29,432 bases of DNA from Minisyncoccota bacterium (GTDB lineage: Bacteria > Patescibacteriota > Minisyncoccia > Phycocordibacterales > Phycocordibacteraceae), in contig DATMJP010000003.1 of the NCBI GenBank assembly GCA_035553815.1, forward strand, positions 1 to 29,432. The letters run 5' to 3'. Positions 2,823-26,862 of the stretch are shown piece after piece (position 1 is the stretch's first letter; every line of letters starts with the position of its first letter). The notes beneath the pieces are model-generated. The model saw only the letters and a program-made list of their open reading frames with translations. It was not told the origin of the DNA and did not search any database. The position numbers and the translations under genes are program-made.

Positions 2823-3604
2823 AATATTCCTTCGCTAAAAAGAGCCTCGGACAGAACTTCCTGATGCATCGCCAGACAAGCGAGCGCATTGTCCTTGCTG
2901 CGGGCGTACTGGAAAGCGATACCGTCCTTGAGATCGGCCCAGGACATGGCGCGCTCACACGCGAACTTCTGGCTAAGGCAGGGAAGGTGGTGGCTATTGA
3001 AGCTGACGATCTCCTTATTCCGGAGCTCAATGAAACCTTTAAAGTGGAGATCGCGAGCGGGAAGCTCACGCTTATCCATGCTGACGTGCGCGACTTTGAT
3101 CCGAAATCACTAGGAACTGCGTACCGATTGGTGGCTAATATCCCGTACTACATCACCGGAGAGATCATTCGCCAGTTCCTCACAGCAACTTCTAAGCCCG
3201 TTTCCATGACCCTTCTCGTGCAAAAGGAGGTCGCGGAGCGCATTGTTCGCTCCAAAAAAGAGAGTCTGCTCTCGCTTTCGGTAAAAGCGTACGGGACGCC
3301 ACGCTATGAGTTCACCGTACCGCGCGGTGCCTTCGTACCCGCTCCTTCTGTCGACTCGGCAGTACTTACCGTTGCCGATATTGCCTCGCCGTTTCGCTCT
3401 GAGACAGAAGAATCGTGGTTTTTTACGGTATTGCGCGCAGGTTTTGCACATAAAAGGAAGCTTCTGCGAAGAAATCTTGAGCTCGTCGCGGAAAAAGAGG
3501 GGATCGAGCCTGCATTTCATGAAGTCGGCATCCCGCTTAGCGCGCGCCCTGAAGATGTACATCTTGATGCATGGGTAGCGCTCGCATCACGGCTCACGGC
3601 GTAG
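2819..3604 (+). CDS. rsmA: 16S rRNA m6,2A dimethyltransferase RsmA/KsgA
   Basis: KKSLGQNFL, SAM-binding VLEIGPGHGALT, ANIPYYIT, F.PAPSVDS, GFAHKRKLL. ATGA overlap with pcrA. Confidence 0.95.
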   Translation: MKYSFAKKSLGQNFLMHRQTSERIVLAAGVLESDTVLEIGPGHGALTRELLAKAGKVVAIEADDLLIPELNETFKVEIASGKLTLIHADVRDFDPKSLGTAYRLVANIPYYITGEIIRQFLTATSKPVSMTLLVQKEVAERIVRSKKESLLSLSVKAYGTPRYEFTVPRGAFVPAPSVDSAVLTVADIASPFRSETEESWFFTVLRAGFAHKRKLLRRNLELVAEKEGIEPAFHEVGIPLSARPEDVHLDAWVALASRLTA

Positions 3605-3644
3605 TAATGCACATGTAGCAGTGATGAATTCACGCGATAGTGCG

Positions 3645-3653
3645 TGATACCAT
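3645..3653 (+). promoter_or_regulatory. Extended -10 element at the head of the T4SS-like cluster
   Basis: TG-A-TACCAT, then 7 nt, then the in-frame GTG at 3661. Confidence 0.5.
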
Positions 3654-3660
3654 ATATATA

Positions 3661-4650
3661 GTGCCAACGCTTCCACTTTCTCCACGTACCACTCGTCTTA
3701 TAGGCGCACTTGCGGTCGCGCTTGTTCTTGTCGGCGGCGCCTACGTCCTCTCTGGACCAAGCTTCTTTTCGCTTAAGTTCGCAGGCGCAGAGTCAAATGA
3801 GGAACTTCTTCGTGCGTATGCAGCTAAAGACACTGACCGAGACGGTCTTCCTGATTGGCAGGAGGTGCTCTACAGCACCGATCCGAATGTCCCTGATACC
3901 GATGGGGACGGCATTTCTGACGGGGAAGCGGCAACGAGCGGCCTACTTTCGACGCAGCGCATTATCAGCGAACAGGTGCCTGAGCCGGTTGATGTGGCCT
4001 CTATCCCTGGATTTGCACCAGCTCCAGGAACTCTCACTGAGGAGTTCTCCCGTACCTTCTTTGAATCATACGTAAGCACCTGGAAGGGCGTACCGCTCAC
4101 ACAGGAAGAGCAGGACGCACTTATCGCCAAGCTCCTTGGCGATTTCTCAGGAAAGGCGAGCGCCGTACTCAGCTCAACCTACTCATCAGCGTCAGTAGAG
4201 AGCAGTGCTGATGTTTCAGTCATCGCGTACGTAGGAGAGCTTGAGAGCGTACTGCGCCGCAATGAGGTGCGCGAAGGGGAGGGCAGTCCTGTGCTTCTTG
4301 CGCAGGCTTTTATTGAAAACTCTGACCGCTCTGCACTTCCAAAGCTAGGAACGCTCGCTCGCGCGTACGGATCAATCGCTACAGAACTTGCAGCACTTCG
4401 CGTCCCAGCTGAACTTAGCGACGAGCATCTCACCCTCATTCGCTCTTTTGATACGCTCTCCAACTCTACTGATGCGATCGCTGCATACGAGAAAGACCCG
4501 CTTGCGGTGCTCGGCGCGCTTGCGCTCTTGCAGCCATCATCGCGCGACATGGTTACCACGCTTGGCACAATTGCGCGGGAGGCAGGCGCAACCGGTTCAG
4601 TGCAGGGCGGCGCGCCGGGCTCACTTATCCAGAACTTTGCTCAGTACTAG
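3661..4650 (+). CDS. Membrane-anchored protein with thrombospondin type-3-like Ca-binding repeats (hypothetical)
   Basis: N-terminal hydrophobic helix (LIGALAVALVLVGGAYVL), two DxDxDG repeats (DTDRDGLPDWQE; DTDGDGISDGE) and a helical C-terminal part. The ORF track starts at 3640; GTG 3661 is preferred because of the -10 spacing. Confidence 0.7.
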   Translation: MPTLPLSPRTTRLIGALAVALVLVGGAYVLSGPSFFSLKFAGAESNEELLRAYAAKDTDRDGLPDWQEVLYSTDPNVPDTDGDGISDGEAATSGLLSTQRIISEQVPEPVDVASIPGFAPAPGTLTEEFSRTFFESYVSTWKGVPLTQEEQDALIAKLLGDFSGKASAVLSSTYSSASVESSADVSVIAYVGELESVLRRNEVREGEGSPVLLAQAFIENSDRSALPKLGTLARAYGSIATELAALRVPAELSDEHLTLIRSFDTLSNSTDAIAAYEKDPLAVLGALALLQPSSRDMVTTLGTIAREAGATGSVQGGAPGSLIQNFAQY

Positions 4651-4653
4651 GAT

Positions 4654-6090
4654 ATGAAGCGCTTCTTTACACAATCGGTCACCTTCCTCGTCGCGCTCTC
4701 ACTCGTTGGCTCTACCTTCACACCGCTTCTTGAGCGCTATACACCAAGGGCGCAGGCGCAGGTAGCAACCCTTGAAGGTCCGGGACCGCTCCTTGCTGCC
4801 GCAGTCGAGACCGCGTTCGTGGAAACTGCAGAGCAGACAGAGGACATAACCATGCGCATTCTCGAAGCTATTGCGCTTGCGGTTGCTCGTGCAGCAATCC
4901 AGTCAATGACACATAGCATTGTGACTTGGATCAACAGCGGTTTTGACGGCTCTCCTGCATTCGTTACCGATCTCAACATTTCCATGCGCAATCTTGCAGA
5001 TGGTGTTGCGCGCGATTTCTTTGCAAACCTCGAACTTGAAGGGATGAACGTCTCGCCGTTCCTCGAGCGCGTGGTTACCGGTGTTGGCGCTGCATATTAC
5101 TTGAACTCAAGCGAAGAGCGTCTCCAGCGCCGCCTGCGCTACACGCTTCGCCAGTACGCACCGAACGATCGTGCGTTCTTGGATGGCGACTTTGAAGAGG
5201 GCGGCTTCAATGCATGGTTCTCGGTATGGCTCCACCAGGCGAACAATCCGATCGGCGCACACTACATCGCAGGCACCGAACTTGCTAATCGTATCGAAGC
5301 AGAATCATTCGAACGCCTTGAAGACTTTAGGAACGGCCGCGGCTTTATCTCATGGAGAGGGGAGTGTAAGGCATACAGCGATCCAGTTCCTTCGCTCGGC
5401 AAGGAAGAGAAGTGTCTCCAGTACGAAGTGAAGACACCAGGCTCGGTCATTGAGCAGCAGCTTATCCATAATCAGCAGTCGCCGCTACGCCAGCTTGAGC
5501 TTGCTGACTCGATTGACTCTATCGTTGGCGCACTTGCGATGCAGCTCGTAACACAGGTGCTCGGCGGCACAGGACTTATAGGTGCTTCACGTCCAAGTAC
5601 AAACGGCGGCGCCTCTCCGCTTGCGCGCGCGACCGATCCTAACCGCACCGCAGGCAATACAACAAGCATGCGCAGCGGCTTTGCACAGAATGTGCGCAAA
5701 GAGCAGGCGAACGCAACTGCATACGTAACTGCATGGCAGCGCATTCAGGGCGCAGCTACCACCGCACAGGCAGGGCTTGCCAGTGGTGTGTGCGCTGATA
5801 AGGAGCAGAAGCAGGCGCTCGTTGGCGCAACACTTGCAGAAGCAGCAAATGCAATAAAGCGCGGGCAGGACGCAGTTGCGGCACTTACGAACATCCTCAG
5901 CGGAATCCCAGAAGGAGAAGACCCTTCAACCAGCGTACTCAGCACTGCATCAAATGACTACATGGCGCTTCTTTCAGGCGGCACACTCCCAAGCGCAACC
6001 GAGGTTGCTCGTGCAAAGACCGAATCTGGAAGCGGAACCGGCACACTCTATACACAAATGATGGATATCGCGAAAGAGTGCGGGACGTAA
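4654..6090 (+). CDS. Exported hypothetical protein of the T4SS-like cluster
   Basis: 478-aa ORF with a signal-peptide-like N-terminus ending AQA-Q, an amphipathic helical region (IVTWINSGFDGSPAFV), a Cys pair (GEC...EKC) and host-like codon usage. No family recognised. Confidence 0.7.
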   Translation: MKRFFTQSVTFLVALSLVGSTFTPLLERYTPRAQAQVATLEGPGPLLAAAVETAFVETAEQTEDITMRILEAIALAVARAAIQSMTHSIVTWINSGFDGSPAFVTDLNISMRNLADGVARDFFANLELEGMNVSPFLERVVTGVGAAYYLNSSEERLQRRLRYTLRQYAPNDRAFLDGDFEEGGFNAWFSVWLHQANNPIGAHYIAGTELANRIEAESFERLEDFRNGRGFISWRGECKAYSDPVPSLGKEEKCLQYEVKTPGSVIEQQLIHNQQSPLRQLELADSIDSIVGALAMQLVTQVLGGTGLIGASRPSTNGGASPLARATDPNRTAGNTTSMRSGFAQNVRKEQANATAYVTAWQRIQGAATTAQAGLASGVCADKEQKQALVGATLAEAANAIKRGQDAVAALTNILSGIPEGEDPSTSVLSTASNDYMALLSGGTLPSATEVARAKTESGSGTGTLYTQMMDIAKECGT

Positions 6091-6099
6091 ACTGTATTC

Positions 6100-8541
6100 A
6101 TGAGCGCGGCACGCACAGCGTCACTATTGTTCAAAAGCGTAGGCACCGCACTTGCGGTGGTTGTTCTTATCTCTAGCGGATGGGGAATAGCGAACGCACA
6201 AACGCCAAGCAACTGGCCTGCCGGCGCACCGCTCGTTGCCCAGTCCGGTCCGGTTCTGCTTACCGTAAATGAGCTTACCTACTATGAGCTTGCAGCAACT
6301 AATGCTGTCGCAGGAGGTCTCTCGCAAGATGTTGCAAACGCACGCATACTGCGTGCTGGCGATTGTCAGGACACCAGCTGTCCAGAAGCGACTAGAACCA
6401 TTGTACGCAACGAATATGTGCAAACGGTGCTTTATACCGTATCGATAAACAGAGTGGCGCCAGTTCCTCCTGGAATTGCACAGCCGCCAAGTGATGGTAC
6501 AGAAACGCCTGGAACTGGCGGAGGGACCGGAGATCCGACGACCGGAGGCGGAGGCACTGGTGAAGAGCAGAGTGCGGTTGGCACAGGAGATAACGGTGAT
6601 GGTTGTAGTCTTATAAACGGCAACATCCTAACGTGTGTTCAGAGTGTCGGAGGCAAGATCGGCGCATCAATCCTCTGGATCTTCGTCTCACTCTTCGGAT
6701 GGATGCTTGGTGTTGTGGGTATGTTCTTTAACTGGGTGATGCTAGTGACCGTCTTCCAGTTTGCAACCTACTTCGGCAATTCAGCCGGCATACTGCTTGC
6801 ATGGAGCGTGCTGCGCGACATCGGCAACATCCTCCTCTTGTTTGGTTTCATATTTATCGGTCTTCAGACCATCCTTAACATCGGCCACTTTAATGTAGGG
6901 AAGGCGCTGCCGCGCCTGGTTATCTTTGCGATACTTATTAACTTCAGCCTTTTTGTTTCAGAAGCTGTCGTCGATATATCAAACGCATTTAGTGCTTCGT
7001 TCTACAGCTACGCTGGAGACTACAACTGTGCAGATATCGGCAATAGCGCTGACTGTACAGAAAAGGGCATCGCAGGAAAGGTACTCGCTGCTGCAGGTCT
7101 CACCCAGATCTTCTCGCTCGACGGACTCTCAAACTTCAGCAACATATGGTCCTCTGACGACGGTATACAAATGTTCGTGCTCTATGCAGGACTCTGCATA
7201 TTCATGATCGTGATGATGATCACGCTTGGCGCAGCCGCGATCATGTTCATGGTTCGCGCAATCACGCTCATGCTTCTTCTCGTGGTTTCGCCGCTTGGAT
7301 TTGCAGGCATGGCCATACCGCAGTTTGAAGAACAGTCGAGCAAGTGGTGGAAGATGCTCATATCGCAGTCGTTCTTCGCGCCGATCTACCTTCTTATGAT
7401 CTTTGTCGGTCTCAAGATCATGGAAGGAGCGCAGGCGGTATTCAATGAAGGAGGAAAGGGAACTATTACCGAGGCTCTTAGCAGTACGACGGTGAGCTCA
7501 GGAGGCGTATTCATCCTCTTTACTCTCATGATCGGCTTTATGATCGCTGCCATGACTATGGCAAAGAACTTTGGCGCAGTAGGCGCAAGCTTTGCGGTAA
7601 ATGTCTCAAGCAAGGCAGTCGGCGCAGCAACCCTTGGCACCGCTGGCGTCATCGGACGAAGAACTATCGGTAAGGCGTCTGCAGAAAATGCAGAGAAGAT
7701 GCGCTCAAGCGAGTGGGCCCAGAAGCATCCGGGCATGGCTCGTCTCATGCTGAAGTCACTTGATTACGGTGCTGCAGCAAGCTTCGATGGACGCAAGTCT
7801 GTCTCAGGCATTGCTGGTGTTAAGAAAGCCGGTATAGATCTCGGTGCAGCAAATAAGACAGCGGCTCATGGATACCACGGCATTGAGGAGAAGGCTATCA
7901 AGGACCGCGAGGACTTCTACAAGAAGCTCAAGCCATCTGATGAGCAGAAAGCTGCTTCAACTGAGCTTAAGGAGGAGCTTGATGAAATCAAGAAGAAGCA
8001 GCGCGAGCGCGTCAGCGCAGAATACACGAATGTCGAACGTGCGCGCGCTGAAGTTGAAGAAGCACGTAAGTCAGGTGACGCGTCGAGGCTTCAATCAGCA
8101 CGAGACAACATGCATAACGCTATGGAAGCGTATGAGCAGAAGATCAAGAATCCTGAGGATGAGGCAGGGAAGCAGCTCAATGCCCGCCAGAAAGCTGTGG
8201 AAGCACGCATCAAGACATGGAACGCAGATGCTGAACGCCAAAAGACTGAGACCTTTATTGAAGGCACTGAGAACTCAAGCAGGCCTAACGTATTCAATCT
8301 TGGCGGCATTACCTACAACAAGTACACCACGGTCGGTCCGCATGCTGATCATGAGGTAATCCGAAAGATTAGGGAAGGAGCAACAAAGAGCGACGTTGAT
8401 AAGGCGCTCGGCGTTCTTGCAAAGAAACTTGAGGAGAAGGACAAAGACAAGGATGAGCACGCGGGAGGACACGCAGCACCACCAGCTGCAGGCCCAAGTG
8501 CGCCCGCTGGCGGAGGTCATGGGCACGGTCCTGCACACTAG
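6100..8541 (+). CDS. Extended VirB6/TrbL-like polytopic membrane protein
   Basis: Signal peptide, ~170-aa extracellular region with Cys pairs and a Gly/Thr linker, then about 7-8 hydrophobic helices with VirB6-like signatures (W..LRDIGNILL; LP.L.I.AILINFS; R.I.LMLLLVVSPL.F; WWK.L....FFAPIY), a charged coiled-coil tail and a His/Gly/Pro-rich end. The family call is from motif memory plus context. Confidence 0.7.
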   Translation: MSAARTASLLFKSVGTALAVVVLISSGWGIANAQTPSNWPAGAPLVAQSGPVLLTVNELTYYELAATNAVAGGLSQDVANARILRAGDCQDTSCPEATRTIVRNEYVQTVLYTVSINRVAPVPPGIAQPPSDGTETPGTGGGTGDPTTGGGGTGEEQSAVGTGDNGDGCSLINGNILTCVQSVGGKIGASILWIFVSLFGWMLGVVGMFFNWVMLVTVFQFATYFGNSAGILLAWSVLRDIGNILLLFGFIFIGLQTILNIGHFNVGKALPRLVIFAILINFSLFVSEAVVDISNAFSASFYSYAGDYNCADIGNSADCTEKGIAGKVLAAAGLTQIFSLDGLSNFSNIWSSDDGIQMFVLYAGLCIFMIVMMITLGAAAIMFMVRAITLMLLLVVSPLGFAGMAIPQFEEQSSKWWKMLISQSFFAPIYLLMIFVGLKIMEGAQAVFNEGGKGTITEALSSTTVSSGGVFILFTLMIGFMIAAMTMAKNFGAVGASFAVNVSSKAVGAATLGTAGVIGRRTIGKASAENAEKMRSSEWAQKHPGMARLMLKSLDYGAAASFDGRKSVSGIAGVKKAGIDLGAANKTAAHGYHGIEEKAIKDREDFYKKLKPSDEQKAASTELKEELDEIKKKQRERVSAEYTNVERARAEVEEARKSGDASRLQSARDNMHNAMEAYEQKIKNPEDEAGKQLNARQKAVEARIKTWNADAERQKTETFIEGTENSSRPNVFNLGGITYNKYTTVGPHADHEVIRKIREGATKSDVDKALGVLAKKLEEKDKDKDEHAGGHAAPPAAGPSAPAGGGHGHGPAH

Positions 8542-8570
8542 TAGTACCGAACGCGTAGCATAGTGTGCTG

Positions 8571-8576
8571 TACAAT
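8571..8576 (+). promoter_or_regulatory. -10 element of the Pro-rich gene
   Basis: TACAAT, 9 nt, ATG at 8586. Confidence 0.5.
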
Positions 8577-8585
8577 AGACGCAGC

Positions 8586-9392
8586 ATGGCAGAACCAACA
8601 CTCGAGGACAGCATTGAGATACTTCTTGAACGTGTTCCAAAACCGGTACGTGATTTCGTGCTGACCGATCTTTCCCAGACCGTACAAGCACTCATGGGGA
8701 AGCACAACCTTCACGTAGACCAGGGTGGACTGCTGCAGCGAGAGCTTCTCCTCATGCTTCTTGGCCAAGAGGAACCCGCAGATTTCATGAAGGAGCTTCG
8801 TGCTGCTGGAATCGAGGAGCAAACCGTACAGGCACTTATTACGGATATTAATGAGATCGTATTCAAGCCACTCCGAAAGAAGGAGCAGGAGGGAGGTGCT
8901 ACGGATCCAGCTCCTTCACCGCAGCCAGCACCACAAGCGCCATCAACTCCTGATGTTCCATTAGATGTGCGCGGTGTCCGCACCATGCAGGCAGACGTGC
9001 AAAGCGCGTCAGAAGCACCACAACCACCGCCTCAGCAGCCTGTGTGGCAGGCGCCACAGTATGCACATCCTGCGTATCCGCCAATGCAGCCTGTATATAC
9101 GCCGTATCCGCCGCCTTATATGCCTATGCCGCCTCAGCAGCAGACGTACTGGGTGCCCGTATCTGTAGCGGGGCAGCCACAACCATATCCTTATCCGCCC
9201 CAGCAAGCCCCTGTACAGCAGCAAGTTCCAGAACCTCCTAAGCCGGAACCTGTTGCACCTCCTACTCCTGAACCAACGCCACCCCCTGCATGGACTCCGC
9301 CACCTGTTCCGCCGCAACCACAGTACGCGCCACCTCCGCAGGTTCCGCTTACAAAAGAATTCGGTGCGGATCCATATCGTGAACCCATCTAG
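8586..9392 (+). CDS. Hypothetical protein: helical N-domain, long Pro/Gln-rich linker, terminal DPYREPI peptide
   Basis: About 100 aa of helical sequence, then low-complexity PQ/PP runs to the end. ATG 8586 is preferred over GTG 8565, which overlaps the -10 box. Confidence 0.75.
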   Translation: MAEPTLEDSIEILLERVPKPVRDFVLTDLSQTVQALMGKHNLHVDQGGLLQRELLLMLLGQEEPADFMKELRAAGIEEQTVQALITDINEIVFKPLRKKEQEGGATDPAPSPQPAPQAPSTPDVPLDVRGVRTMQADVQSASEAPQPPPQQPVWQAPQYAHPAYPPMQPVYTPYPPPYMPMPPQQQTYWVPVSVAGQPQPYPYPPQQAPVQQQVPEPPKPEPVAPPTPEPTPPPAWTPPPVPPQPQYAPPPQVPLTKEFGADPYREPI

Positions 9393-9406
9393 TTTGAGAG
9401 GAGTGT

Positions 9407-9415
9407 TGGTATACT
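9407..9415 (+). promoter_or_regulatory. Extended -10 element of prgI-virB4
   Basis: TG-G-TATACT, 7 nt, ATG at 9423. Confidence 0.65.
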
Positions 9416-9422
9416 GTTAGCA

Positions 9423-9830
9423 ATGGAGTACCAGGTACCGCAGTTCATCGAAGTTGAGGAGAAAATATTCGGACCGCTCTCAATAAAGCAGTTCGTATAC
9501 ATTGCTGGCGGACTTGGTATCTGCGTCGTGCTCGTGCTCTATCTTCCGCGCATCATTGGCGTAGCGCTTGCAATTCCGCTCGGCATCTTTACCTTCGCGC
9601 TTGCGTTCTACCGAATCAACAACAAGCCATTCATTGAGATACTTGAAGCGGGATTCAATTACTACCTCGGCGGCAGACTCTATATATGGAAGAGGGAAGA
9701 GAAGCGGCCGGAAGATATTCCTGCTGCGCCCGCTACACCTGCAGTAGAAGTACGTGAGAAGCTCGGCCTCTCGCAGAACAAGCTCCATGAGCTTGCATGG
9801 TCGCTTGATATTAAGGATACCCAGCAATAA
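9423..9830 (+). CDS. PrgI-family (VirB3-like) membrane protein
   Basis: N-terminal VPQFIEVEEKIFGPLSIKQF resembles the PrgI signature. Two adjacent TM helices; immediately upstream of the virB4-like genes. Confidence 0.8.
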   Translation: MEYQVPQFIEVEEKIFGPLSIKQFVYIAGGLGICVVLVLYLPRIIGVALAIPLGIFTFALAFYRINNKPFIEILEAGFNYYLGGRLYIWKREEKRPEDIPAAPATPAVEVREKLGLSQNKLHELAWSLDIKDTQQ

Positions 9831-9831
9831 C

Positions 9832-10467
9832 ATGCCCGCAACCAAAGCCGCCCAGTCATTTGTGCCTGTTAAAGAAATTCGCAACGGCGTTGTGATGCTC
9901 AAGAATGGCGGGTACCGGGGCATTCTTATGTGCTCTTCGATCAACTTCGCGCTGAAGTCCGAAGACGAGCAGCGCGCTATCATCGGCGGCTTCCAGAACT
10001 TCCTCAATACGCTCGATTTCTCGGTTGAAATCGTAGTGCACTCCCGCAAGATGGACATTCGCCCGTATCTTGCGCTTCTTGAGGAGCGTATGGAGTCACA
10101 GTCTTCCGAACTTATGCGCATTCAGCTGCGCGAATACATTCAGTTCATCCGTTCATTCATTGAGGGCTCTGAGATCATGACTAAGCTTTTCTATGTTGTT
10201 GTTCCGTATGATGCGGCACCGGCAAGCGAAGTGGCGAGCGCACTCCCATTCCTCCCGAAGAGCAAGGCCAACACGCCCGTCGATATGGGATCTGACGCGT
10301 TTGCTGAGTATCGCGCGCAGCTTGAGCAGCGCATGGCGCTTGTCGCAAGCGCGCTCGCTGGAAGCGGCGTGCGCGCCGTGCCTCTTGGCACCGAAGAGAT
10401 CATTGAGCTCTTGTATCGTTCATTTAATCCAAGCGAGCATGAGAACCCTATCCGGCTTCAGCAATAA
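9832..10467 (+). CDS. VirB4 N-terminal-domain-like protein (stand-alone half of a split VirB4/TraE)
   Basis: AQSFVPVKEIRNG...SINFALKSEDEQRAII..FQNFLNTLDFSVEI...GVRAVPLGTEEIIELLY..FNP resembles the N-terminal region of Firmicutes conjugative VirB4 (TraE/CD1110-type) as remembered. ATG 9832 lies 1 nt after the prgI stop; the ORF-track start 9754 overlaps prgI. Confidence 0.65.
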   Translation: MPATKAAQSFVPVKEIRNGVVMLKNGGYRGILMCSSINFALKSEDEQRAIIGGFQNFLNTLDFSVEIVVHSRKMDIRPYLALLEERMESQSSELMRIQLREYIQFIRSFIEGSEIMTKLFYVVVPYDAAPASEVASALPFLPKSKANTPVDMGSDAFAEYRAQLEQRMALVASALAGSGVRAVPLGTEEIIELLYRSFNPSEHENPIRLQQ

Positions 10468-10470
10468 CGT

Positions 10471-12294
10471 ATGGCACTAAGCGATTTCTTCAACAAGCGA
10501 AACAGCAGCGAAGAGCCGGCACTCACTCCGGTTCTCCCGCAGGACATTTATGCAGCAGGCGAACTCGATCTTGCTGACACCATTGCGCCGGCAGCGCTTA
10601 AGGTTGGCTCGCGCGAGCTTGAGATCGGTGAGAAGTTTTCCCGCTCGTTTTACACAATCTCCTATCCGCGCTTCCTTTCTGACAGCTGGTTTACCCCGAT
10701 CATTAACCTCTCAAAGCAATTGGATGTTGCGATCTTTATTCATCCTCTTGAAACCGGCATTGTAATGCGCAACTTCCAGAAGAAGGTTGCCGAGGTACAG
10801 AGCCAGATTGCTGAAAGGGAAGAGAAGGGTCTCGTGCGCGATCCTATGCTTGATACCGCATACCGCGACCTTGAAGATCTGCGCGATCAGCTGCAACAGG
10901 CACAGGAGCGCCTCTTTGAAGTCGGCCTCTACATAACGATCTACGGCTCAACGAAAGAGGATTTGGATAAGATAGAGTCTGAGATCCGCGGCATTCTTGA
11001 CGCGAAGCTTGTGTACACCAAGCCAGCACTCTTTCAGCAGGAACAGGGCTTCCGCTCGACGCTTCCGCTCATGAGCGATGAGCTGGCATCCCATTCAAAA
11101 CTCAACTCTTCACCGCTTTCTTCCTTGTTCCCATTTGTATCGTTTGATCTTACAAGCGACCGCGGCATTCTTTACGGCATCAACCGCCACAATGCGTCAC
11201 TCGTGCTCTTTGACCGCTTCTCGATGGAGAACTACAACTCCGTGGTGTTTGCCAAGTCCGGTTCTGGTAAGTCATACGCCGTGAAGCTTGAGGTACTTCG
11301 CTCACTCATGTTCGATACGGACGTGATCGTGATTGATCCGGAGCGCGAGTACGAATACCTCGCGCAGGCAACCGGCGGACGCATCTTCAATATCTCGCTC
11401 TCGTCCGAACACCACATCAATCCGTTTGATCTTCCGCCAGTGAAAGACGATGAGGAGCCAGCAGATATCCTGCGCTCAAACATCATCAACCTCGTCGGCC
11501 TCTTCCGCATCATGCTCGGCGGCCTCACACCAGAGGAGGATGCGATTGTTGACCGCGCGATCACGGAAACCTATGCACTGAAAGACATCACGGGTGACGC
11601 AGACTTTACCGGCATCGAGCCACCGCTCCTGTCTGACTTTGAAAGCGTCTTGTCCGGCATGGAGGGAAGCGAGTCTTTGGTGCAGCGCCTTTCCAAATAC
11701 ACGCACGGAACCTGGTCCGGCTTTATAAACCGCCCCACAAATGTTGATATCAACAAGCAGTTGATCGTCTTCTCAGTGCGTGATATGGAGGACGAGCTGA
11801 AGCCGGTCGCGATGTATATCATCACGCACTACATCTGGAATGCAGTGCGCCATGAATTGAAGAAGCGCCTCCTTGTTATCGACGAGGCGTGGTGGATGAT
11901 GAAGTCTGACGATACTGCATCCTTCCTCTACTCAATGGCCAAGCGCGGCCGTAAGTACTACCTCGGCCTTGCAACGATTACGCAGGACGTAGAAGACTTC
12001 TTGAGAAGTCCGTATGGCCGTCCGATCCTTACGAACTCATCGATCCAGCTTCTCTTGAAGCAGTCTCCGACGACGATTGATGTGCTCAAAGAGACCTTTA
12101 ATCTGACCGACGAGGAGAAGTACCTGCTCCTTGAGTCTGGGGTGGGCGAGGGCCTCTTCTTTGCCGGCCTTAAGCATGTGGCAATTAAGATTGTTGCGTC
12201 CTACACCGAAGACCAGATCATCACCTCAGACCCTTCCCAGCTTCTTGCAATTCGCAAAGAGAAAGACCGTCTGGAAGGAGGCCAAGGTACCTAG
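10471..12294 (+). CDS. virB4: VirB4/TraC-family ATPase (607 aa)
   Basis: Walker A FAKSGSGKS, VIVIDPEREY, HINPFD, Walker B LLVIDEAWW, KRGRKY, ITQ and LLLKQ motifs. Confidence 0.9.
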   Translation: MALSDFFNKRNSSEEPALTPVLPQDIYAAGELDLADTIAPAALKVGSRELEIGEKFSRSFYTISYPRFLSDSWFTPIINLSKQLDVAIFIHPLETGIVMRNFQKKVAEVQSQIAEREEKGLVRDPMLDTAYRDLEDLRDQLQQAQERLFEVGLYITIYGSTKEDLDKIESEIRGILDAKLVYTKPALFQQEQGFRSTLPLMSDELASHSKLNSSPLSSLFPFVSFDLTSDRGILYGINRHNASLVLFDRFSMENYNSVVFAKSGSGKSYAVKLEVLRSLMFDTDVIVIDPEREYEYLAQATGGRIFNISLSSEHHINPFDLPPVKDDEEPADILRSNIINLVGLFRIMLGGLTPEEDAIVDRAITETYALKDITGDADFTGIEPPLLSDFESVLSGMEGSESLVQRLSKYTHGTWSGFINRPTNVDINKQLIVFSVRDMEDELKPVAMYIITHYIWNAVRHELKKRLLVIDEAWWMMKSDDTASFLYSMAKRGRKYYLGLATITQDVEDFLRSPYGRPILTNSSIQLLLKQSPTTIDVLKETFNLTDEEKYLLLESGVGEGLFFAGLKHVAIKIVASYTEDQIITSDPSQLLAIRKEKDRLEGGQGT

Positions 12295-12297
12295 CCT

Positions 12298-12801
12298 ATG
12301 GCTGAACTCGGATCACGCCTCCAGCAAGCAGAGACGGCACTCTTTGTAGCCGGTACGCTCAGAGAGATCCGCGCCATATTTAATGAAAAAGGTGAGAATT
12401 TTGACGCTGAAGACGCAAACGATGTCCTCAGAGATCCTCCTGAGCCAGTACACTTTCCATTTCTTATAGCAGGAATCTCTGCATTTAAAGATGTGACCGA
12501 TGCGCTTGATATGACTATCGCAGGCATTATCGTCACCACGCTTCTCTCAGTTTTTGTCTCACTCACGCTGTTCTTCTGGTTCTGGGGAAAGATGAAGGGC
12601 AGGTGGTGGAAGAAAGCAATGATGAAGTTTATAGTGCGGCGCTTCTTCCTCATGCTCGGTATTGAGCTGCTCCCATTCCTTAAGTTCATCCCTATGACGA
12701 CTATTTTCGTGCTTATGGCCCACTACAAGGAGAAGAAGATCGTGCGGCTTATGAACCTCGCGCTCGAGATCATGCACAAGCGGGGCATAGCACGCGCATA
12801 A
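12298..12801 (+). CDS. Hypothetical integral membrane protein
   Basis: 167 aa with 3-4 hydrophobic segments and a Lys/Arg/Trp-rich loop (WFWGKMKGRWWKK); 3 nt after the virB4 stop. Confidence 0.65.
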   Translation: MAELGSRLQQAETALFVAGTLREIRAIFNEKGENFDAEDANDVLRDPPEPVHFPFLIAGISAFKDVTDALDMTIAGIIVTTLLSVFVSLTLFFWFWGKMKGRWWKKAMMKFIVRRFFLMLGIELLPFLKFIPMTTIFVLMAHYKEKKIVRLMNLALEIMHKRGIARA

Positions 12802-12839
12802 TACCCAAACGCCGTAGGCTCACACCAAGTAGAGGGCGG

Positions 12840-12845
12840 TATACT
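12840..12845 (+). promoter_or_regulatory. -10 element
   Basis: TATACT, 6 nt, ATG at 12852. Confidence 0.55.
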
Positions 12846-12851
12846 ATACGC

Positions 12852-13835
12852 ATGCGATTGTTCGCGCTTTCTCTTATAGCAGCTCTTTTCTTCATTCCGT
12901 CATTGACGGCGGTTGCGCAGGGATTACCCACTACTGAGCCGCTCTCCGTCTCCATAAGCCCTCAGTACCCGCGCCCGTATCAGACCATCACCATTACGCC
13001 GCGCAGTTACGGCGTAAACCTTACTTCCAGTACGGTTGTTATTTCGGTTAACGGCACCGAGATTGAGCGTGGTTCAGGCCTCATCACCGGCTATGCGCGC
13101 CTTGGAGGCCCTGGGGAGCGCACCACGATACGTGTAAGTGTTACCACAAACGGCCAGACACAGCAGAGAGAAGTTATCGTGCGCCCGGCTGAAGTCGCAC
13201 TTGTAGCAGAGCCACTGACTACAACCCACCCATTTTATAAAGGGGCTCCGCTAGTAGCGTCTGAGGGGCGCGTCCGTCTCGTGGCTATTCCTGATATACG
13301 CACCGCTCCAGGCACCAGTGTTGCGCCACAGAATCTCGTCTACACCTGGCGCCTTGGCAACCGCATACTTGAATCTTCGTCCGGGATAGGGAAGTCCGTT
13401 ATCGATGCGGTTGCCCCTATTCGCTACCGAGACGCAACAGTCTCTGTGACGGTAACGTCGCAAGATAGTACCCTCGTTGCATACGCTGAGACCGTAGTGG
13501 CACCGGTCGACCCAATAATACGCATCTATCGCAATGATCCACTACTCGGCCCACTCTTCGATACCGCATTCAGTGGGGAGGTGGTTATGAGCACTGAAGA
13601 GGAGACGTTCCGCGCGGTACCGTACTACTTTGGAAGCACGCCCGCAGTCACCTGGACGATGAATTCGATTGAGAGCGGATACGATAAGGACATCACGGTG
13701 CGCTCTACGGGTGCTGGTATCGGTTCGGCAATTCTAGCAGCAAGCGCTAGGGGCTCGCTCCTGTTCCAGAGTGCAGAGAGCATGCTCACAGTCCGTTTTG
13801 GTGAGCTGCGCCCACTTGGCATATTTGGTCTATAA
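12852..13835 (+). CDS. Secreted beta-rich (Ig-like/PKD-like) protein
   Basis: Signal peptide ending AVA-Q, and about three modules of alternating beta-strand sequence with LVYTW/AVTW-type motifs typical of Ig-fold repeats. Confidence 0.65.
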   Translation: MRLFALSLIAALFFIPSLTAVAQGLPTTEPLSVSISPQYPRPYQTITITPRSYGVNLTSSTVVISVNGTEIERGSGLITGYARLGGPGERTTIRVSVTTNGQTQQREVIVRPAEVALVAEPLTTTHPFYKGAPLVASEGRVRLVAIPDIRTAPGTSVAPQNLVYTWRLGNRILESSSGIGKSVIDAVAPIRYRDATVSVTVTSQDSTLVAYAETVVAPVDPIIRIYRNDPLLGPLFDTAFSGEVVMSTEEETFRAVPYYFGSTPAVTWTMNSIESGYDKDITVRSTGAGIGSAILAASARGSLLFQSAESMLTVRFGELRPLGIFGL

Positions 13836-13837
13836 CT

Positions 13838-14815
13838 ATGAGCTACCGCACCTTCGCACTTATCCTTCACCTCATCCTGCTTGGCGGCATTGCGCTGCCG
13901 AGCATTGCTTTTGCACAAGGCTTTGTGCCTCTTACGAATCTCCCAGGCCTTTCTGATTTTGAGCAGTCTCCTGATCTGCCTGCGTTCCTTAACAGCCTCT
14001 ACAAGATCTGTATCGGTGTGGCAGCGACGCTTGCAGTATTCCAAATCATGCATGCTGGTATTAAGTTCATGACCAACAAGGGCAGTGTTTCTGAAAACGA
14101 GCAGGCAAAAGATCTCATCCGTGGTGCTGTGCTCGGTCTCTTGCTTGTGCTTTCCCCGGTCATTGTATTTGGCATCATTAATCCAAAGATTCTTGAGCTT
14201 GATCTTGATGTGTCGAGGCTTGAGTCTGAGATTGCGGTTCCTGAAGATGATCCTACAACCGGAGGAACGGGAGGTGATACAACGGGAGGAACAGGTGGCG
14301 ACTCCGCTGGAAGCTGGTCCTTGGTGGGGGCAGTGTACAGACCAAGCGCTGAGGCGGCAGGACAGTGGCTTGATCAGTACTGTCAGAACAACCAGGTTCC
14401 TGCGAATGTACAAGACATAGTAGCTGAGCGCGGCAGAGATGTATCTGGTGCCGTAGATTGTCCTATAGGAGTGCAGGGAACGGCCAACTGCAACACCGCA
14501 GGTAAGACCTACATCGCGCGATGCGAGAGCGATTCAAAAGACTTCAGAGTATTCCGAGATCGTTCATGGGCCAATCAATGGAATCCTACTAACTGGTTTG
14601 ATACCGAGTGGGTAGCTATTCCAGGCAAGGATAAGGAACTGTTTGATAGATTCAGCAGCATCTGCACCGCTGAGAGAGGGAGGATAAACATCGAATCAGA
14701 CAGGGACTTCAACCTCTTAACGGTAGCGAGCTCAGGTTGTAGCGCTGATGAGCGGGAGCGCATGGGGGAGGGCAATTGGATGTGTGTCGAAGCGCGCGCA
14801 ATATGCGAAAGCTAA
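13838..14815 (+). CDS. TrbC/VirB2-like T4SS pilin with a C-terminal Cys-rich domain
   Basis: Signal peptide ending AFA-Q; pilin core LYKICIGVAATLAVFQIMHAGIKFMT.KG....EQAKDLIRGAVLGLLLVLSPVIVFGIINP; G/T linker; then about 160 aa with 8 Cys. Confidence 0.75.
   Translation: MSYRTFALILHLILLGGIALPSIAFAQGFVPLTNLPGLSDFEQSPDLPAFLNSLYKICIGVAATLAVFQIMHAGIKFMTNKGSVSENEQAKDLIRGAVLGLLLVLSPVIVFGIINPKILELDLDVSRLESEIAVPEDDPTTGGTGGDTTGGTGGDSAGSWSLVGAVYRPSAEAAGQWLDQYCQNNQVPANVQDIVAERGRDVSGAVDCPIGVQGTANCNTAGKTYIARCESDSKDFRVFRDRSWANQWNPTNWFDTEWVAIPGKDKELFDRFSSICTAERGRINIESDRDFNLLTVASSGCSADERERMGEGNWMCVEARAICES
14255..14302 (+). repeat. 2 x 24-nt tandem repeat encoding TTGGTGGD
   Basis: ACAACCGGAGGAACGGGAGGTGAT / ACAACGGGAGGAACAGGTGGCGAC; all 5 differences are synonymous third positions. 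Confidence 0.8.
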
Positions 14816-14823
14816 CTTAGTAC

Positions 14824-14829
14824 TATACT
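14824..14829 (+). promoter_or_regulatory. -10 element
   Basis: TATACT, 6 nt, ATG at 14836. Confidence 0.55.
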
Positions 14830-14835
14830 TTCTTT

Positions 14836-16047
14836 ATGCGCCGCATCTTTCTCATCGTCCTAGGCAGCATCGTCCTCATCGGTATCGGTCTTGCTGCATA
14901 TTTCTTCTTCTTCGCACCCAAGGGTCCGGCTCTAGAAGTTTCAGACGGTAACTTTTTTGGCAGCGCGGGAGACGCGCCTGTCGGTCTTGGCGACACCGGG
15001 GAAGGAGACGGCCCTGTTCCTGCCGGTGAAGAGTTTGCGCCTCGATTGATTCGCATTACTGAAGGGCCAGTAGCGCTCGGCGCCGTATCTGTCGCGCTTC
15101 CTTCACAGGCCGAGACTGCCTCAGGTACGCCCGCAGTCCCAGGCGATACTGAAGTTCGCTATATAGACCGCGCGAGCGGCAATGTGTACTCGTATAAGTT
15201 TCATGAGCGCTCGCTCTCACGTATCTCAAATCGCACACTTCCAGGAATCCAGGAGGCGGCGTGGCTTTCTGATGGCTCAACGGCATTTACCCGCTTCTTA
15301 GTGAATGACGCAAATGGCGAACATGTAGCAACCTATGCACTGCCTGCAACAGGTGAGGGCGGCTACTTCCTTGACCGCGGGATTGAGCAGGTGGCGGTAA
15401 GCGGCACGACAACGATATTTACACTTCTTTCTTCATCAGCAGGATCGGTTGGCACCGTCGCAAATCCAGACGGCTCCAATCCACGCACACTCTTCACGTC
15501 GAACCTCTCCAACGTGATCGTACATCTCTCGAATGGTCCGTTTATTGCTGCGACCAAACCTTCTTCTGGCTTAGATGGTTATGCATTTACCGTCGGCAGT
15601 ACCGGAACCTTCACACGCATTCTCGGCCCCTTCCGTGGACTATCAGTCCTGCCAAGCCCTTCAAGCAACTACGTGCTCTTCAGTTTTGTAGAGAACCGCG
15701 TCCTTAAGCTCTCGCTACTTGATCGCAGGACAGGAACCGTTATCGCGCTACCATTGAGCACGCTCGCTGAAAAGTGTGTATGGGAGAACGGGGAACAGGG
15801 CTTTTACTGCGGCGTGCCGCAGGGCCCTACAGGAAACCTGCCTGACGATTGGCACCAGGGCGTTGCCTCGTTCAGAGATCGGTTGTGGCGTATTGATGTT
15901 GCAGGACGCGTTGCAACGTACGTCATCAATCCCTCAACAGAAGCGAGCGTTGATATCGACATGGTAGGACTCGCGCTCGATGGAAGGAACGATGTGCTTG
16001 TTTTCAAGAATAAGAAAGACGGATCGCTCTGGGCATACGATCTCTAA
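14836..16047 (+). CDS. Membrane-anchored beta-propeller-like protein
   Basis: N-terminal TM helix, Gly/Pro/acidic linker, then repeated short beta-strand blades with TolB/WD-like turns (AAWLSDGS, VLPSPSSNYVLFS, CVWENG, GLALDGRNDVLVF). The fold is inferred. Confidence 0.65.
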   Translation: MRRIFLIVLGSIVLIGIGLAAYFFFFAPKGPALEVSDGNFFGSAGDAPVGLGDTGEGDGPVPAGEEFAPRLIRITEGPVALGAVSVALPSQAETASGTPAVPGDTEVRYIDRASGNVYSYKFHERSLSRISNRTLPGIQEAAWLSDGSTAFTRFLVNDANGEHVATYALPATGEGGYFLDRGIEQVAVSGTTTIFTLLSSSAGSVGTVANPDGSNPRTLFTSNLSNVIVHLSNGPFIAATKPSSGLDGYAFTVGSTGTFTRILGPFRGLSVLPSPSSNYVLFSFVENRVLKLSLLDRRTGTVIALPLSTLAEKCVWENGEQGFYCGVPQGPTGNLPDDWHQGVASFRDRLWRIDVAGRVATYVINPSTEASVDIDMVGLALDGRNDVLVFKNKKDGSLWAYDL

Positions 16048-16080
16048 AGAAAAAGCCCCGCTTGTGCGGGGCTTTTTCTT
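16047..16080. terminator. Bidirectional intrinsic terminator between the cluster and yidC
   Basis: Perfect 15-bp inverted repeat AAGAAAAAGCCCCGC-TTGT-GCGGGGCTTTTTCTT between convergent stops. Confidence 0.9.
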
Positions 16081-16820
16081 TATGCTGCTACCGGCTCTTC
16101 AGCAATAGTTCGCTTAACAAAGAACTCCTGGAGAATGCCGACGATGTTGCTTGTAATGAAGTAGAGGGCCACGGCGCCTGAGGTGAACGCAACCGCGCCG
16201 ATAACGAAGGGAAGTACGTAGCGCGCCTGCACTGCCATTGCGCGTCCAAACTCCGCCTGCATCGCACCCTTATCCTGAAGCGAATTAGGGTCGCGCTTAG
16301 GAATTGGAATGGCAAAGTACGCCTGCACAAACTGAGTAGCAGCCGCAAGCACTGCAAGAATTATATTGTGGCCCGCAATGACAAAGAATCCGAGGAAAAG
16401 GGCAGAGAACGTGCCGGGATCATTCACGAATGAGTAGAGAATGTCAGGGTTTACCTGGCTCATCGACTCGCGCTGGAACACAAGGAAGAGTGTAATGAGC
16501 ACGGGAATCTGGATGAACATGCCGAGCATGCTTGAGAACGGCTTTACATTCTCTTCCTTGTAGAGGGCAAACATCATTTCCGCCTGCTTTTGCTTGTCGT
16601 CCTTGTAGGTTTCCTTGAGTTCCTTCAACTTAGGTTCAAGACGGCGCATTGCGCGCTGGGTCTTAAGCGCTGAGATGGAGAGGGGGAGGGTCACGAACTT
16701 TACGATGAGGGTGACGATGACGACCGCAAGACCGATATCAGCGCCCGGGAGGACGCCGACAAGGTAAATGAGGAGGTTATAGATCGGAATGTAGAGGTAC
16801 TCGTGGAAAAAGGAAATCAT
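16080..16820 (-). CDS. yidC: Membrane protein insertase YidC/Oxa1 (short form without large periplasmic domain)
   Basis: GLAVVIVTLIVKFVTLPL, P.LKELKE.YK.D.Q.Q....ALYKEE.V.P, IQIPVLI.LF, ALYFITSN; canonical position after rnpA. Confidence 0.92.
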   Translation of the reverse strand: MISFFHEYLYIPIYNLLIYLVGVLPGADIGLAVVIVTLIVKFVTLPLSISALKTQRAMRRLEPKLKELKETYKDDKQKQAEMMFALYKEENVKPFSSMLGMFIQIPVLITLFLVFQRESMSQVNPDILYSFVNDPGTFSALFLGFFVIAGHNIILAVLAAATQFVQAYFAIPIPKRDPNSLQDKGAMQAEFGRAMAVQARYVLPFVIGAVAFTSGAVALYFITSNIVGILQEFFVKRTIAEEPVAA

Positions 16821-16827
16821 GTGCTCT

Positions 16828-16836
16828 AGAGTACCA
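16828..16836 (-). promoter_or_regulatory. Extended -10 element of yidC
   Basis: Minus strand TG-G-TACTCT, 7 nt, ATG at 16820. Confidence 0.5.
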
Positions 16837-16838
16837 GA

Positions 16839-17165
16839 TTACGCACGTGTCTGCTCGATAAGGGCAGTGAGTTCAGTCTGCAGATCCTCAAAAGGAAGTA
16901 GCTGACTCTTTGGACGAGCGTATACAACGAGTATGAAGTCCTTAGAGCAGTGATTGCGCAGCACTTCACGAATGCGGCGCTTTAGGAGATGACGCTTTAC
17001 TGAGCTGCGCTCTACCTTTTTAGAGACCACCACGCCGCACCCGCCCTCGCTTGGCGCAGGGCCGTAGGTAACGGAGAAATGCGGGCTGGTTGCCCGCATC
17101 AAGTCCTTCCGGCTCGTTACGCTCTCAAAATCCCGGCGGGAGAGACGCAATCGGCGTGGAATCAT
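16839..17165 (-). CDS. rnpA: Ribonuclease P protein component
   Basis: RL....DF, GVVVSKKV...VKRHLLKRRIRE (RNR-motif helix, diverged); located between rpmH and yidC. Confidence 0.85.
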   Translation of the reverse strand: MIPRRLRLSRRDFESVTSRKDLMRATSPHFSVTYGPAPSEGGCGVVVSKKVERSSVKRHLLKRRIREVLRNHCSKDFILVVYARPKSQLLPFEDLQTELTALIEQTRA

Positions 17166-17167
17166 GG

Positions 17168-17305
17168 TTATACCGTAAGGCTGGCGCGACCCTTGCGGCG
17201 ACGGCGAAGAATGGTCTTCTTGCCGCCTGGGGTTGCAGCACGTGCACGAAAACCGTGCGTCGTTGCGCGCTTGCGTTTCTTTGGCTGGTAGGTGCGCTTA
17301 GGCAT
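17168..17305 (-). CDS. rpmH: 50S ribosomal protein L34 (45 aa, missed by the ORF track)
   Basis: Manual translation [45 protein letters not shown] matches the L34 pattern; divergent from dnaA. Confidence 0.95.
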
Positions 17306-17306
17306 G

Positions 17307-17389
17307 TTGTCCACAGGATAGTACCAGGCACCAGCCGTAAACGCAACATTTTAGGGGACTTTCGACTTTTCCCCAGGTGCCCGTATAAT
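17307..17389. promoter_or_regulatory. Divergent rpmH/dnaA promoter region with two DnaA-box-like sites
   Basis: rpmH extended -10 TG-G-TACTAT (minus, 17326-17318); dnaA -10 TATAAT (17384-17389) 9 nt before the ATG; TTGTCCACA at 17307-17315 and TTTTCCCCA at 17367-17375. Confidence 0.7.
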
Positions 17390-17398
17390 ACGGCAACG

Positions 17399-18748: not shown

Positions 18749-18976
18749 CTGGGGATAAGGTATGGAAAAGCGTGGAGTGAATGTGGGGACAAAGAGAGGA
18801 GAAATAAGCCAGCTATCCCCACACGGTTCTATACCCTCCATTTCTATCCCCACTAGAAGCGCTTCTGGCGGGCAGTACTCAACAGGATACCGGGAGAGCA
18901 GGTTTCAAAATAGTGGCGTATACTGGGACTATATGGAGGTTATCCCCCTATCCACACACCTAATAATAAGAGGGGT
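18749..18976. other. Probable replication origin oriC (dnaA-dnaN intergenic)
   Basis: Box-like 9-mers: rc TTATCCCCA 18750-58, rc TTTTCCATA 18761-69, rc TTGTCCCCA 18784-92, CTATCCCCA 18813-21 and 18844-52, tandem TTATCCCCC 18940-48 / CTATCCACA 18948-56, followed by CAC-CTA-ATA-ATA (DnaA-trio-like). A 12-bp palindrome AGAAGCGCTTCT lies at 18855-66. Confidence 0.8.
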
Positions 18977-26796: not shown

Positions 26797-26802
26797 GGAG
26801 CT

Positions 26803-26856
26803 ATGATAGCGCGCTCGGAAGCAGCCTGCCATGCTTTTCTTTGTAATTGGTACAAT
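26803..26856. promoter_or_regulatory. Divergent -10 elements of pilB (-) and tsaE (+)
   Basis: Minus TATCAT (26808-26803), 6 nt, ATG 26796. Plus TG-G-TACAAT (26848-56), 6 nt, ATG 26863. Confidence 0.6.
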
Positions 26857-26862
26857 AGGGGT

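Follow-up and report, generated by a model that had tools for sequence, protein, structure and literature searches.

Results

Gene content of the locus

The subject of this study is a cluster of 11 open reading frames (ORFs), termed g1 to g11, which encodes a type IV secretion system (T4SS) and lies near the replication origin in an ultrasmall Paceibacteria (CPR) genome of a Minisyncoccota bacterium. The cluster is located on contig C3, which was analyzed at its full length of 29.4 kb and is referred to as the window. It is part of an assembly comprising 546 kb in 61 contigs, which is 86% complete and has a GC content of about 54%. All 11 ORFs are intact, share the forward strand between positions 3640 and 16047 with intergenic gaps of no more than 50 nucleotides, and are bounded by ksgA/rsmA on the left and by yidC-rnpA-dnaA-dnaN on the right. 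As detailed below, the locus is an intact, vertically inherited and non-mobile machine, whose motor is under strong purifying selection. An initial annotation of the same DNA had described eleven co-directional genes including PrgI/VirB3, a split VirB4, an extended VirB6 and a VirB2-like pilin, and our analysis recovers this gene content. The individual genes are:

3640..4650 (+): g1, membrane protein of bitopic topology comprising an N-terminal transmembrane (TM) helix, a TSP3 repeat that binds Ca and an outer domain rich in helices (PF18884, TM profile)
4654..6090 (+): g2, secreted, mostly helical protein specific to Patescibacteria (signal-peptide-like N-terminus)
6100..8541 (+): g3, extended VirB6/TrbL-like polytopic membrane protein of 813 residues (TM profile, alignment, PF04610 matches of orthologues)
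8565..9392 (+): g4, conserved N-terminal domain of about 110 residues followed by a tail rich in Pro and Gln (translation may actually start at the ATG at 8586)
9423..9830 (+): g5, PrgI/VirB3-like membrane hairpin (PF12666, E 1.4e-8), heading a conserved transcription unit
9832..10467 (+): g6, TrsD-like, N-terminal piece of a VirB4 of the mating-pair formation class FATA (MPF-FATA; VirB4 and TrsD family models)
10471..12294 (+): g7, VirB4 ATPase comprising the rest of the N-terminal domain and the P-loop domain (intact Walker A and Walker B motifs)
12298..12801 (+): g8, small membrane protein with two TM segments and a conserved E-x2-P-x5-P motif (TM profile)
12852..13835 (+): g9, secreted beta-rich protein, probably with immunoglobulin (Ig)-like repeats (signal peptide), heading a conserved unit
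13838..14815 (+): g10, VirB2-like pilin with a signal peptide, two hydrophobic helices and a C-terminal domain containing nine Cys (PF18895/TrbC in orthologues)
14836..16047 (+): g11, beta-propeller with a TM helix at its N-terminus as membrane anchor (AlphaFold2 model, Foldseek)

The assignment of the motor is based on g6 and g7. The latter matches positions 183-733 of the 752 positions in the family model NF045971 (conju_CD1110) with 368.6 bits (cut-off 325, E 6e-110) and it is also related to the TraG P-loop domain (E 1e-23), to the solved VirB4 structure from Thermoanaerobacter (PDB 4AG5, E 9e-51) and to TrwK (E 1.7e-6). Its GxGKS and DE motifs are invariant in an alignment of VirB4 orthologues. 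The preceding g6 starts with an ATG at 9832, one base past the stop codon of the PrgI gene, and its product matches positions 2-130 of NF045971 (E 3.4e-6), positions 104-233 of 894 in the mycoplasma VirB4 model NF045975 (E 1.9e-8) and the TrsD model NF041427 of the TrsD/TraD family (E 2.3e-4), with orthologues in relatives being 46-71% identical. We considered g6 as a paralogue of the N-terminal part of VirB4 and rejected this possibility, since a profile-profile comparison of g6 with g7 detected no similarity (probability 0.2); g6 thus does not duplicate the N-terminal region retained in g7 but supplies its missing N-terminal piece. Because g6 and g7 jointly tile one full-length CD1110-type VirB4 model, as do trsD and trsE of pGO1, and because in the class-level relative G132 (contig C5, 1162-3612) the TrsD-like portion is joined to VirB4 within one open frame of 816 codons, the term 'split VirB4' is a fair description of the gene pair, whose two-gene form is the normal one in this group.

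In addition to its signal peptide, the large membrane protein g3 displays an N-terminal ectodomain with Cys, some six TM helices and a tail of about 300 residues that forms a charged coiled coil. By itself the protein shows no family match in Pfam and NCBIfam searches. Its orthologues share 41-48% identity with it in the matched core and cover positions 26-212 of 215 in PF04610 (TrbL/VirB6) with E-values of 4e-6 to 2e-5, one of these nearly full-length matches scoring above the cut-off, and among the 12 members of the g3 alignment one matches TrbL (E 1.8e-4). By transitive homology, g3 is a predicted VirB6 homologue in the vicinity of virB4.

A similar situation is found for g10, whose score of 23.5 bits against the Pfam pilin model is under the cut-off of 26.6. 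PF18895 is recognized in all 13 orthologues (best E 6e-11) and TrbC/VirB2 in six of them. These orthologues range from 144 to 415 residues, of which only the first 130 or so align, and their Cys-rich tails vary in length and sequence. The Cys-rich C-terminal domain of g10 itself (residues ~135-325) is not conserved in relatives and may constitute a variable host-recognition tip. Four more genes encoding VirB2-like pilins are found outside the locus in two tandem pairs, at C17:1949-4427 (-) and C52:679-1896 (-). Their products match a hidden Markov model of the g10 N-terminus with E-values of 3e-10 to 4e-6 and two of them are long like g10 (317 and 334 residues).

Conservation and inheritance

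The distribution of the system was investigated in two samples, consisting of 41 genomes from 17 families of the order, searched for VirB4, and of 101 genomes of the class, searched for the VirB4, g11 and g9 families. VirB4 is present in 39 of the 41 relatives, with 72-87% identity across the 17 families, and in 97 of the class-level genomes, a distribution that is not patchy. The 80 best-ranking loci of 539 tblastn-confirmed relatives belong to metagenome-assembled genomes of Patescibacteria or of bacteria. The surroundings of the cluster consist of the following genes:

906-2822 (+): uvrD/pcrA (UvrD domains), preceding ksgA
2819..3604 (+): ksgA/rsmA, the left flank (PF00398, E 1.6e-47), co-directional with the cluster and with synteny kept in relatives
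16080..20077: the right flank of origin-proximal core genes, yidC (-), rnpA (-), dnaA (+) and dnaN (+) (PF02096, PF00825, Bac_DnaA, DNA_pol3_beta)

We compared this arrangement with stretches of 20 kb containing 15 loci taken from relatives. The order uvrD-ksgA-g1 to g11-yidC-rnpA-dnaA-dnaN, followed by a gene for a penicillin-binding protein (PBP), is kept as one block in eight of them, which are found across the order, and it is unbroken in three further loci where the stretch ends short of ksgA. The order yidC-rnpA-dnaA-dnaN on the right is common to all 15. In four congeners the locus is split, with a PrgI-g11 block still residing beside yidC-dnaA and the uvrD-ksgA-g1-g4 block located elsewhere. 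The displaced block is found in inverted orientation about 70 kb away in a complete genome, at a distance of about 49 kb in a second congener and on another contig in the third, and in the fourth the VirB6-like gene alone was located, at a distance of about 40 kb. The retention of both halves after the split fits selection on function rather than on linkage. The breakpoint of this rearrangement, the g4/g5 boundary, is also the boundary of a promoter unit. In the same four congeners (including G017 and G023), the rearrangement has placed comEC and genes for an M50 peptidase and a glucose-6-phosphate dehydrogenase directly upstream of PrgI.

The inheritance of the motor was assessed by relating pairwise VirB4 distances to those of DnaA+DnaN+YidC in a Mantel test with 5000 permutations and by a comparison of trees. 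Both sets of distances are strongly correlated (r = 0.946, with none of the 5000 permutations being as high), VirB4 diverging at 0.46 times the rate of the core proteins, and the two trees concur in their well-supported clades. Within the neighborhood, conservation is highest for VirB4, which exceeds DnaA, and lowest for the surface proteins (20-55%). The GC content of the cluster, the GC content at third codon positions, its synonymous-codon score and its tetranucleotide distance are all inside the range of the genome.

We have also searched for genes that would confer mobility. Domain searches of the window proteins detected no relaxase, VirD4 or integrase, the window contains no tRNA gene, and no att-like pair of direct repeats was found to bracket the cluster. 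The sole tyrosine recombinase of the genome, a strong Xer-like one, is encoded on contig C25, away from the locus. A relaxase search of the 86%-complete genome with six Pfam families (PF03432, PF01076, PF03389, PF08751, PF02486 and PF13814) gave no match; in positive controls, five of the six families exceeded their own cut-off, with the PF13814 control matching below its cut-off. These results bear out the proposal of the initial annotation that the locus lacks a relaxase, an integrase, a flanking tRNA and att repeats, that it shares the codon style of its neighbors and that it is inherited vertically rather than as a mobile element, and the checks on synteny with rsmA and yidC and on a conflict between the trees of VirB4 and core genes, for the latter of which we used DnaA+DnaN+YidC, are both in line with it.

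The apparent lack of a VirD4 coupling protein, also proposed at the outset, holds for the window but not for the genome, which encodes two ATPases of the VirD4/TraD superfamily at C36:207-1865 and C34:4170-5852 (-), both unlinked to the locus and the second cut by the end of its contig. The two proteins contain no TM segments and show weak matches to TrwB_AAD_bind, TraG-D_C and conju_CD1115. In a survey of 40 relatives, every genome contains at least one match and most contain both, with the first ATPase being 58-82% identical. The observed number agrees with the report of about two mostly unlinked homologues of type IV coupling proteins (T4CPs) per genome in the sections of PMC12102498 considered here. 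In relatives, the second ATPase comprises about 930 residues; in the present genome it is followed by a protein of 935 residues that belongs to no family.

Lineage-specific components

Seven proteins of the locus are lineage-specific and six of these are membrane-bound or secreted, which include the TSP3 anchor, the secreted helical protein, the protein with two TM segments, the secreted beta-rich protein, the variable tail of the pilin and the TM-anchored beta-propeller. The claim that all accessory genes encode surface or membrane proteins is thus accurate for the Ca-binding anchor, the beta-propeller and others, but not for g4, which is predicted to be cytoplasmic because it contains neither a membrane segment nor a signal peptide.

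Among these proteins, g11 and g9 are linked to VirB4 throughout the class. The predicted structure of g11 is of good quality (predicted local distance difference test (pLDDT) score 85.2, predicted template modelling score 0.80) and it retrieves WD40, tricorn and TolB propellers with a Foldseek probability of 1.00; its profile matches to TolB have E-values of 0.024-0.2. Members of the g11 family were found in 75 of the 101 class genomes, in 65 of which they are encoded on the same contig as VirB4 and within about 5 kb of it. The g9 family is present in 56 of these genomes and is located between VirB4 and g11 where both share one contig. The Ig-like assignment of g9 is suggested by weak profile matches to PDB entries (E 0.016-0.07).

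The TSP3 repeat of g1 was identified by a match to PF18884 (TSP3_bac) with an E-value of 4.5e-6 and 26.8 bits (cut-off 25). The protein contains a single TM segment (residues 20-38), its orthologues at the same position in relatives are 21-40% identical, and a PDB profile search found no relative beyond the TSP3 repeat. Equivalent searches of g2, g3 and g6 likewise returned nothing specific. For g2 there is no match in Pfam or NCBIfam and its atlas neighbors are all hypothetical proteins of Minisyncoccota. Its AlphaFold2 model is poor (pLDDT 53), with confidence confined to a C-terminal helical bundle that gives generic matches. With respect to a possible VirB5/TraC-like identity of g2, TraC (1R8I) was found with a Z-score of 7.8 at rank 28 amid hundreds of generic helical bundles, a result that is non-discriminating. 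The N-terminal domain of g4 is conserved in relatives and the protein shows no family match in Pfam and NCBIfam. Finally, g8 also shows no match in these family searches, and positional homologues of the same architecture are found in 13 of the 15 loci.

Promoter units

A scan of the locus for consensus sigma-70 promoters identified six sites, compared to 9 ± 3 in shuffled sequences, and such a generic scan thus lends no support to defined promoters. A pattern emerged from the counts of TATACT hexamers by their spacing to the start codons of ORFs of at least 100 codons, since 52 of the 156 hexamers in the genome are located 6-9 nucleotides before such a start, whereas other spacings and control hexamers account for about one to two per spacing. 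This short distance implies leaderless or near-leaderless transcripts and suggests that the 5' end of many mRNAs of this Paceibacterium coincides with the start codon or lies just ahead of it. Perfect TATACT boxes precede the ATG of g5 by seven nucleotides and those of g9 and g11 by six nucleotides each. Weaker boxes are TAAACT before g3 (6100) and TACAAT nine nucleotides before the alternative start of g4 at 8586, and related boxes in the window are TATAGT before uvrD (906) and TATAAT before the dnaA ATG at 17399. In the 15 loci of relatives, a similar box is found nine times before PrgI and nine times before g9, and never before VirB4 or the pilin gene.

Judged from this pattern, the locus would be transcribed from the leaderless promoters of the genome itself, in at least three internal units (g5-g8, g9-g10 and g11) and possibly in up to five or six, of which only the three internal promoters appear firm. 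The notion of a promoter grammar shared with neighboring genes is therefore sustained by the genome-wide TATACT pattern inside the locus. The proposed division into at least five small promoter units could be verified only in part: three units are marked by perfect boxes and two further ones, at g3 and the alternative start of g4, by weaker boxes.

Other genes in the window

Beyond dnaN, the window contains genes for a class A PBP (-), ruvC, a YebC-like protein, ruvB and a PilB-type ATPase (all -), which are followed by polA. The ATPase, of the PilB/GspE type with an MshEN domain, corresponds to a type IV pilus motor; it adjoins ruvB at 25126-27336 (-), 9 kb from the T4SS. The longest dnaA ORF (17090-18748, starting with TTG at 17090) overlaps rnpA. 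Since the alignment of orthologues begins only near residue 100 and since the ATG at 17399 carries its TATAAT box nine nucleotides upstream, the real DnaA probably comprises 449 residues.

Discussion

A resident machine and its proposed mechanism

The described properties are best explained by a vertically inherited, chromosomal T4SS which combines an inner-membrane motor, a pilin and lineage-specific surface parts in the service of an epibiotic lifestyle, a conclusion that we regard as very probable. In analogy to solved T4SSs, VirB3 and the TrsD piece would anchor the VirB4 hexamer to the membrane adjacent to VirB6, and VirB4 would pull the Sec-inserted pilin from the membrane and polymerize it into a tube. 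The VirB7/9/10 core is not present at this locus, and secreted and anchored accessory proteins may replace it by spanning the wall and touching the host cell. Drawing on the literature, the machine would serve the epibiotic lifestyle instead of self-transfer, and we infer a function in host contact, secretion or uptake. Within this range, the uptake of host material by a pilus or conduit is a plausible if tentative assignment, the export of effectors is possible with less confidence, a role confined to adhesion appears unlikely and the transfer of DNA very improbable.

Certain observations weigh against the described interpretation. No VirB8-like or VirB1-like subunit was recognized in the locus, where g1 appears all-helical and no hydrolase domain is found, and the roles of g1, g2, g4, g8, g9 and g11 are suggested by their position, topology and conservation only. 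With the genome being 86% complete and distributed over 61 contigs, a relaxase could be encoded in the portion that is missing or represent a family not yet known. Finally, the presence of two conserved VirD4-like ATPases would still allow for a substrate coupling of the conjugative type.

Alternative explanations

As an alternative, the system could be a nucleic-acid uptake machine resembling ComB of Helicobacter pylori or the archaeal Ced system, whose pilus contacts the host and which imports host DNA or RNA as a source of nucleotides. This possibility, to which we assign a rather low likelihood, would agree with the lack of a detected relaxase and of a coupling protein in the locus, and with the fact that Patescibacteria do not synthesize nucleotides. 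The reviews PMC12857230 and PMC11665869 describe the T4SS and its pilins as essential in Southlakia epibionticum, where comEC is dispensable, and they list the role of the T4SS as unknown, with effector delivery or uptake being proposed. A 2026 preprint (bioRxiv 10.64898/2026.06.21.733656) reports a cultivated Minisyncoccota parasite that acquires and feeds on host RNA and displays tubular structures, which may be T4SS pili. A connection to uptake could also be seen in the location of comEC directly upstream of PrgI in four congeners, but this adjacency is a rearrangement in one subclade. Moreover, VirB4 is not an orthologue of CedB (37.5 bits against NF041017 compared to a cut-off of 700, confined to the P-loop region) and the two VirD4-like ATPases are retained genome-wide. 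We regard as more doubtful still a specific form of such a mechanism, in which an outer module consisting of g9, the pilin with its variable Cys-rich tail and g11, together with g1 and g2, replaces VirB7/9/10 and sets host specificity, and in which the machine imports host nucleic acids or other macromolecules rather than exporting.

Somewhat less likely than nucleic-acid uptake in general is an export system injecting effector proteins into the host, for which the unlinked VirD4-like ATPases, either one of them or both, would act as coupling protein. Such a function would fit the conservation of these ATPases, scored in 41 of 41 relatives, and it corresponds to the effector delivery proposed in PMC11665869, but their genes show no linkage to the locus and their products lack TM segments, no candidate effectors were identified in this study, and a T4CP homologue is described as non-essential in S. 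epibionticum in the sections of PMC12102498 considered here.

We reject as exceedingly improbable an ordinary integrated conjugative element or its decaying remnant since, despite the descent of the core genes from MPF-FATA conjugation systems, the searches, with six Pfam families in the case of relaxases, found no relaxase, integrase, att site or tRNA, the cluster does not deviate in composition from its host genome, its position and gene order do not vary across the order in a system present class-wide, the divergence of VirB4 parallels that of core genes, and all genes are intact with a motor that is more conserved than DnaA.

A resident T4SS devoted to the epibiotic lifestyle is thus our preferred explanation. 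In Patescibacteria, such systems are probably central to the host-dependent life of a very large and mostly uncultivated radiation, and in the one species tested the T4SS is essential. The accessory proteins that are linked to VirB4 class-wide would be sensible targets for structural or genetic work.

Comparison with known systems

The relationship to VirB4-based, relaxase-less DNA import systems such as ComB of H. pylori and Ced of Sulfolobales is distant, as there is no orthology beyond the shared ATPase fold. The order of genes encoding a VirB3-like protein, TrsD and VirB4 resembles trsC-trsD-trsE of pGO1/pSK41 and the system of the CTn2 VirB4 CD1110, which belong to the MPF-FATA systems of Firmicutes. 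In contrast to the locus described here, these systems are mobile and, besides a relaxase and a hydrolase, encode VirB8-like proteins and a neighboring VirD4 but no VirB2 pilin. A further related system is the T4SS of Candidatus Southlakia epibionticum ML1, which is essential for epibiotic growth (Wang et al. 2023, as cited in PMC12857230 and PMC11665869) and which is also a chromosomal monoderm T4SS with VirB3, VirB4, VirB6 and VirB2-like pilins. In this member of the class Saccharimonadia, an array of six pilin genes and VirB1-like hydrolases are found next to virB4, whereas our locus contains one pilin gene, with four more located elsewhere, and no recognizable hydrolase.

The closest counterpart is the Paceibacteria arrangement of the T4SS described in a survey of 3,035 Patescibacteria genomes (Quinonero-Coronel et al. 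2025, Microb Genom, PMC12102498). In the sections of that work considered here, VirB4 forms a monophyletic Patescibacteria clade nested in MPF-FATA with TrsD next to it, the systems contain PrgI, VirB6, VirB2-like pilins and arrays of pilins, relaxases are nearly absent, T4CP homologues are unlinked, and in Paceibacteria the systems are located near dnaA, dnaN, rnpA, ksgA and rpmH. Both arrangements share a VirB4 of MPF-FATA ancestry, which adjoins TrsD and PrgI/VirB3, a nearby VirB6 and VirB2-like pilin, the lack of a relaxase, the location of T4CP homologues elsewhere and the neighborhood of ksgA, rnpA, dnaA and dnaN; within the compared sections there is no substantive difference between the two. 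A relaxase-less, dnaA-linked T4SS was thus already published between 2023 and 2025, the locus is another copy of this known system, and its interpretation as vertically inherited is the published conclusion of the same parts of PMC12102498 and of the reviews PMC12857230 and PMC11665869. Compared to the sections of the survey considered here, the present analysis adds that a TM-anchored beta-propeller and a secreted beta-rich protein are linked to VirB4 throughout the class, that the locus shows leaderless promoter units, that some congeners carry a locus divided between g4 and PrgI, and that one TrsD-VirB4 fusion exists. Although the locus does not represent a new kind of system, it provides a clean and complete Paceibacteria example with a defined list of parts.

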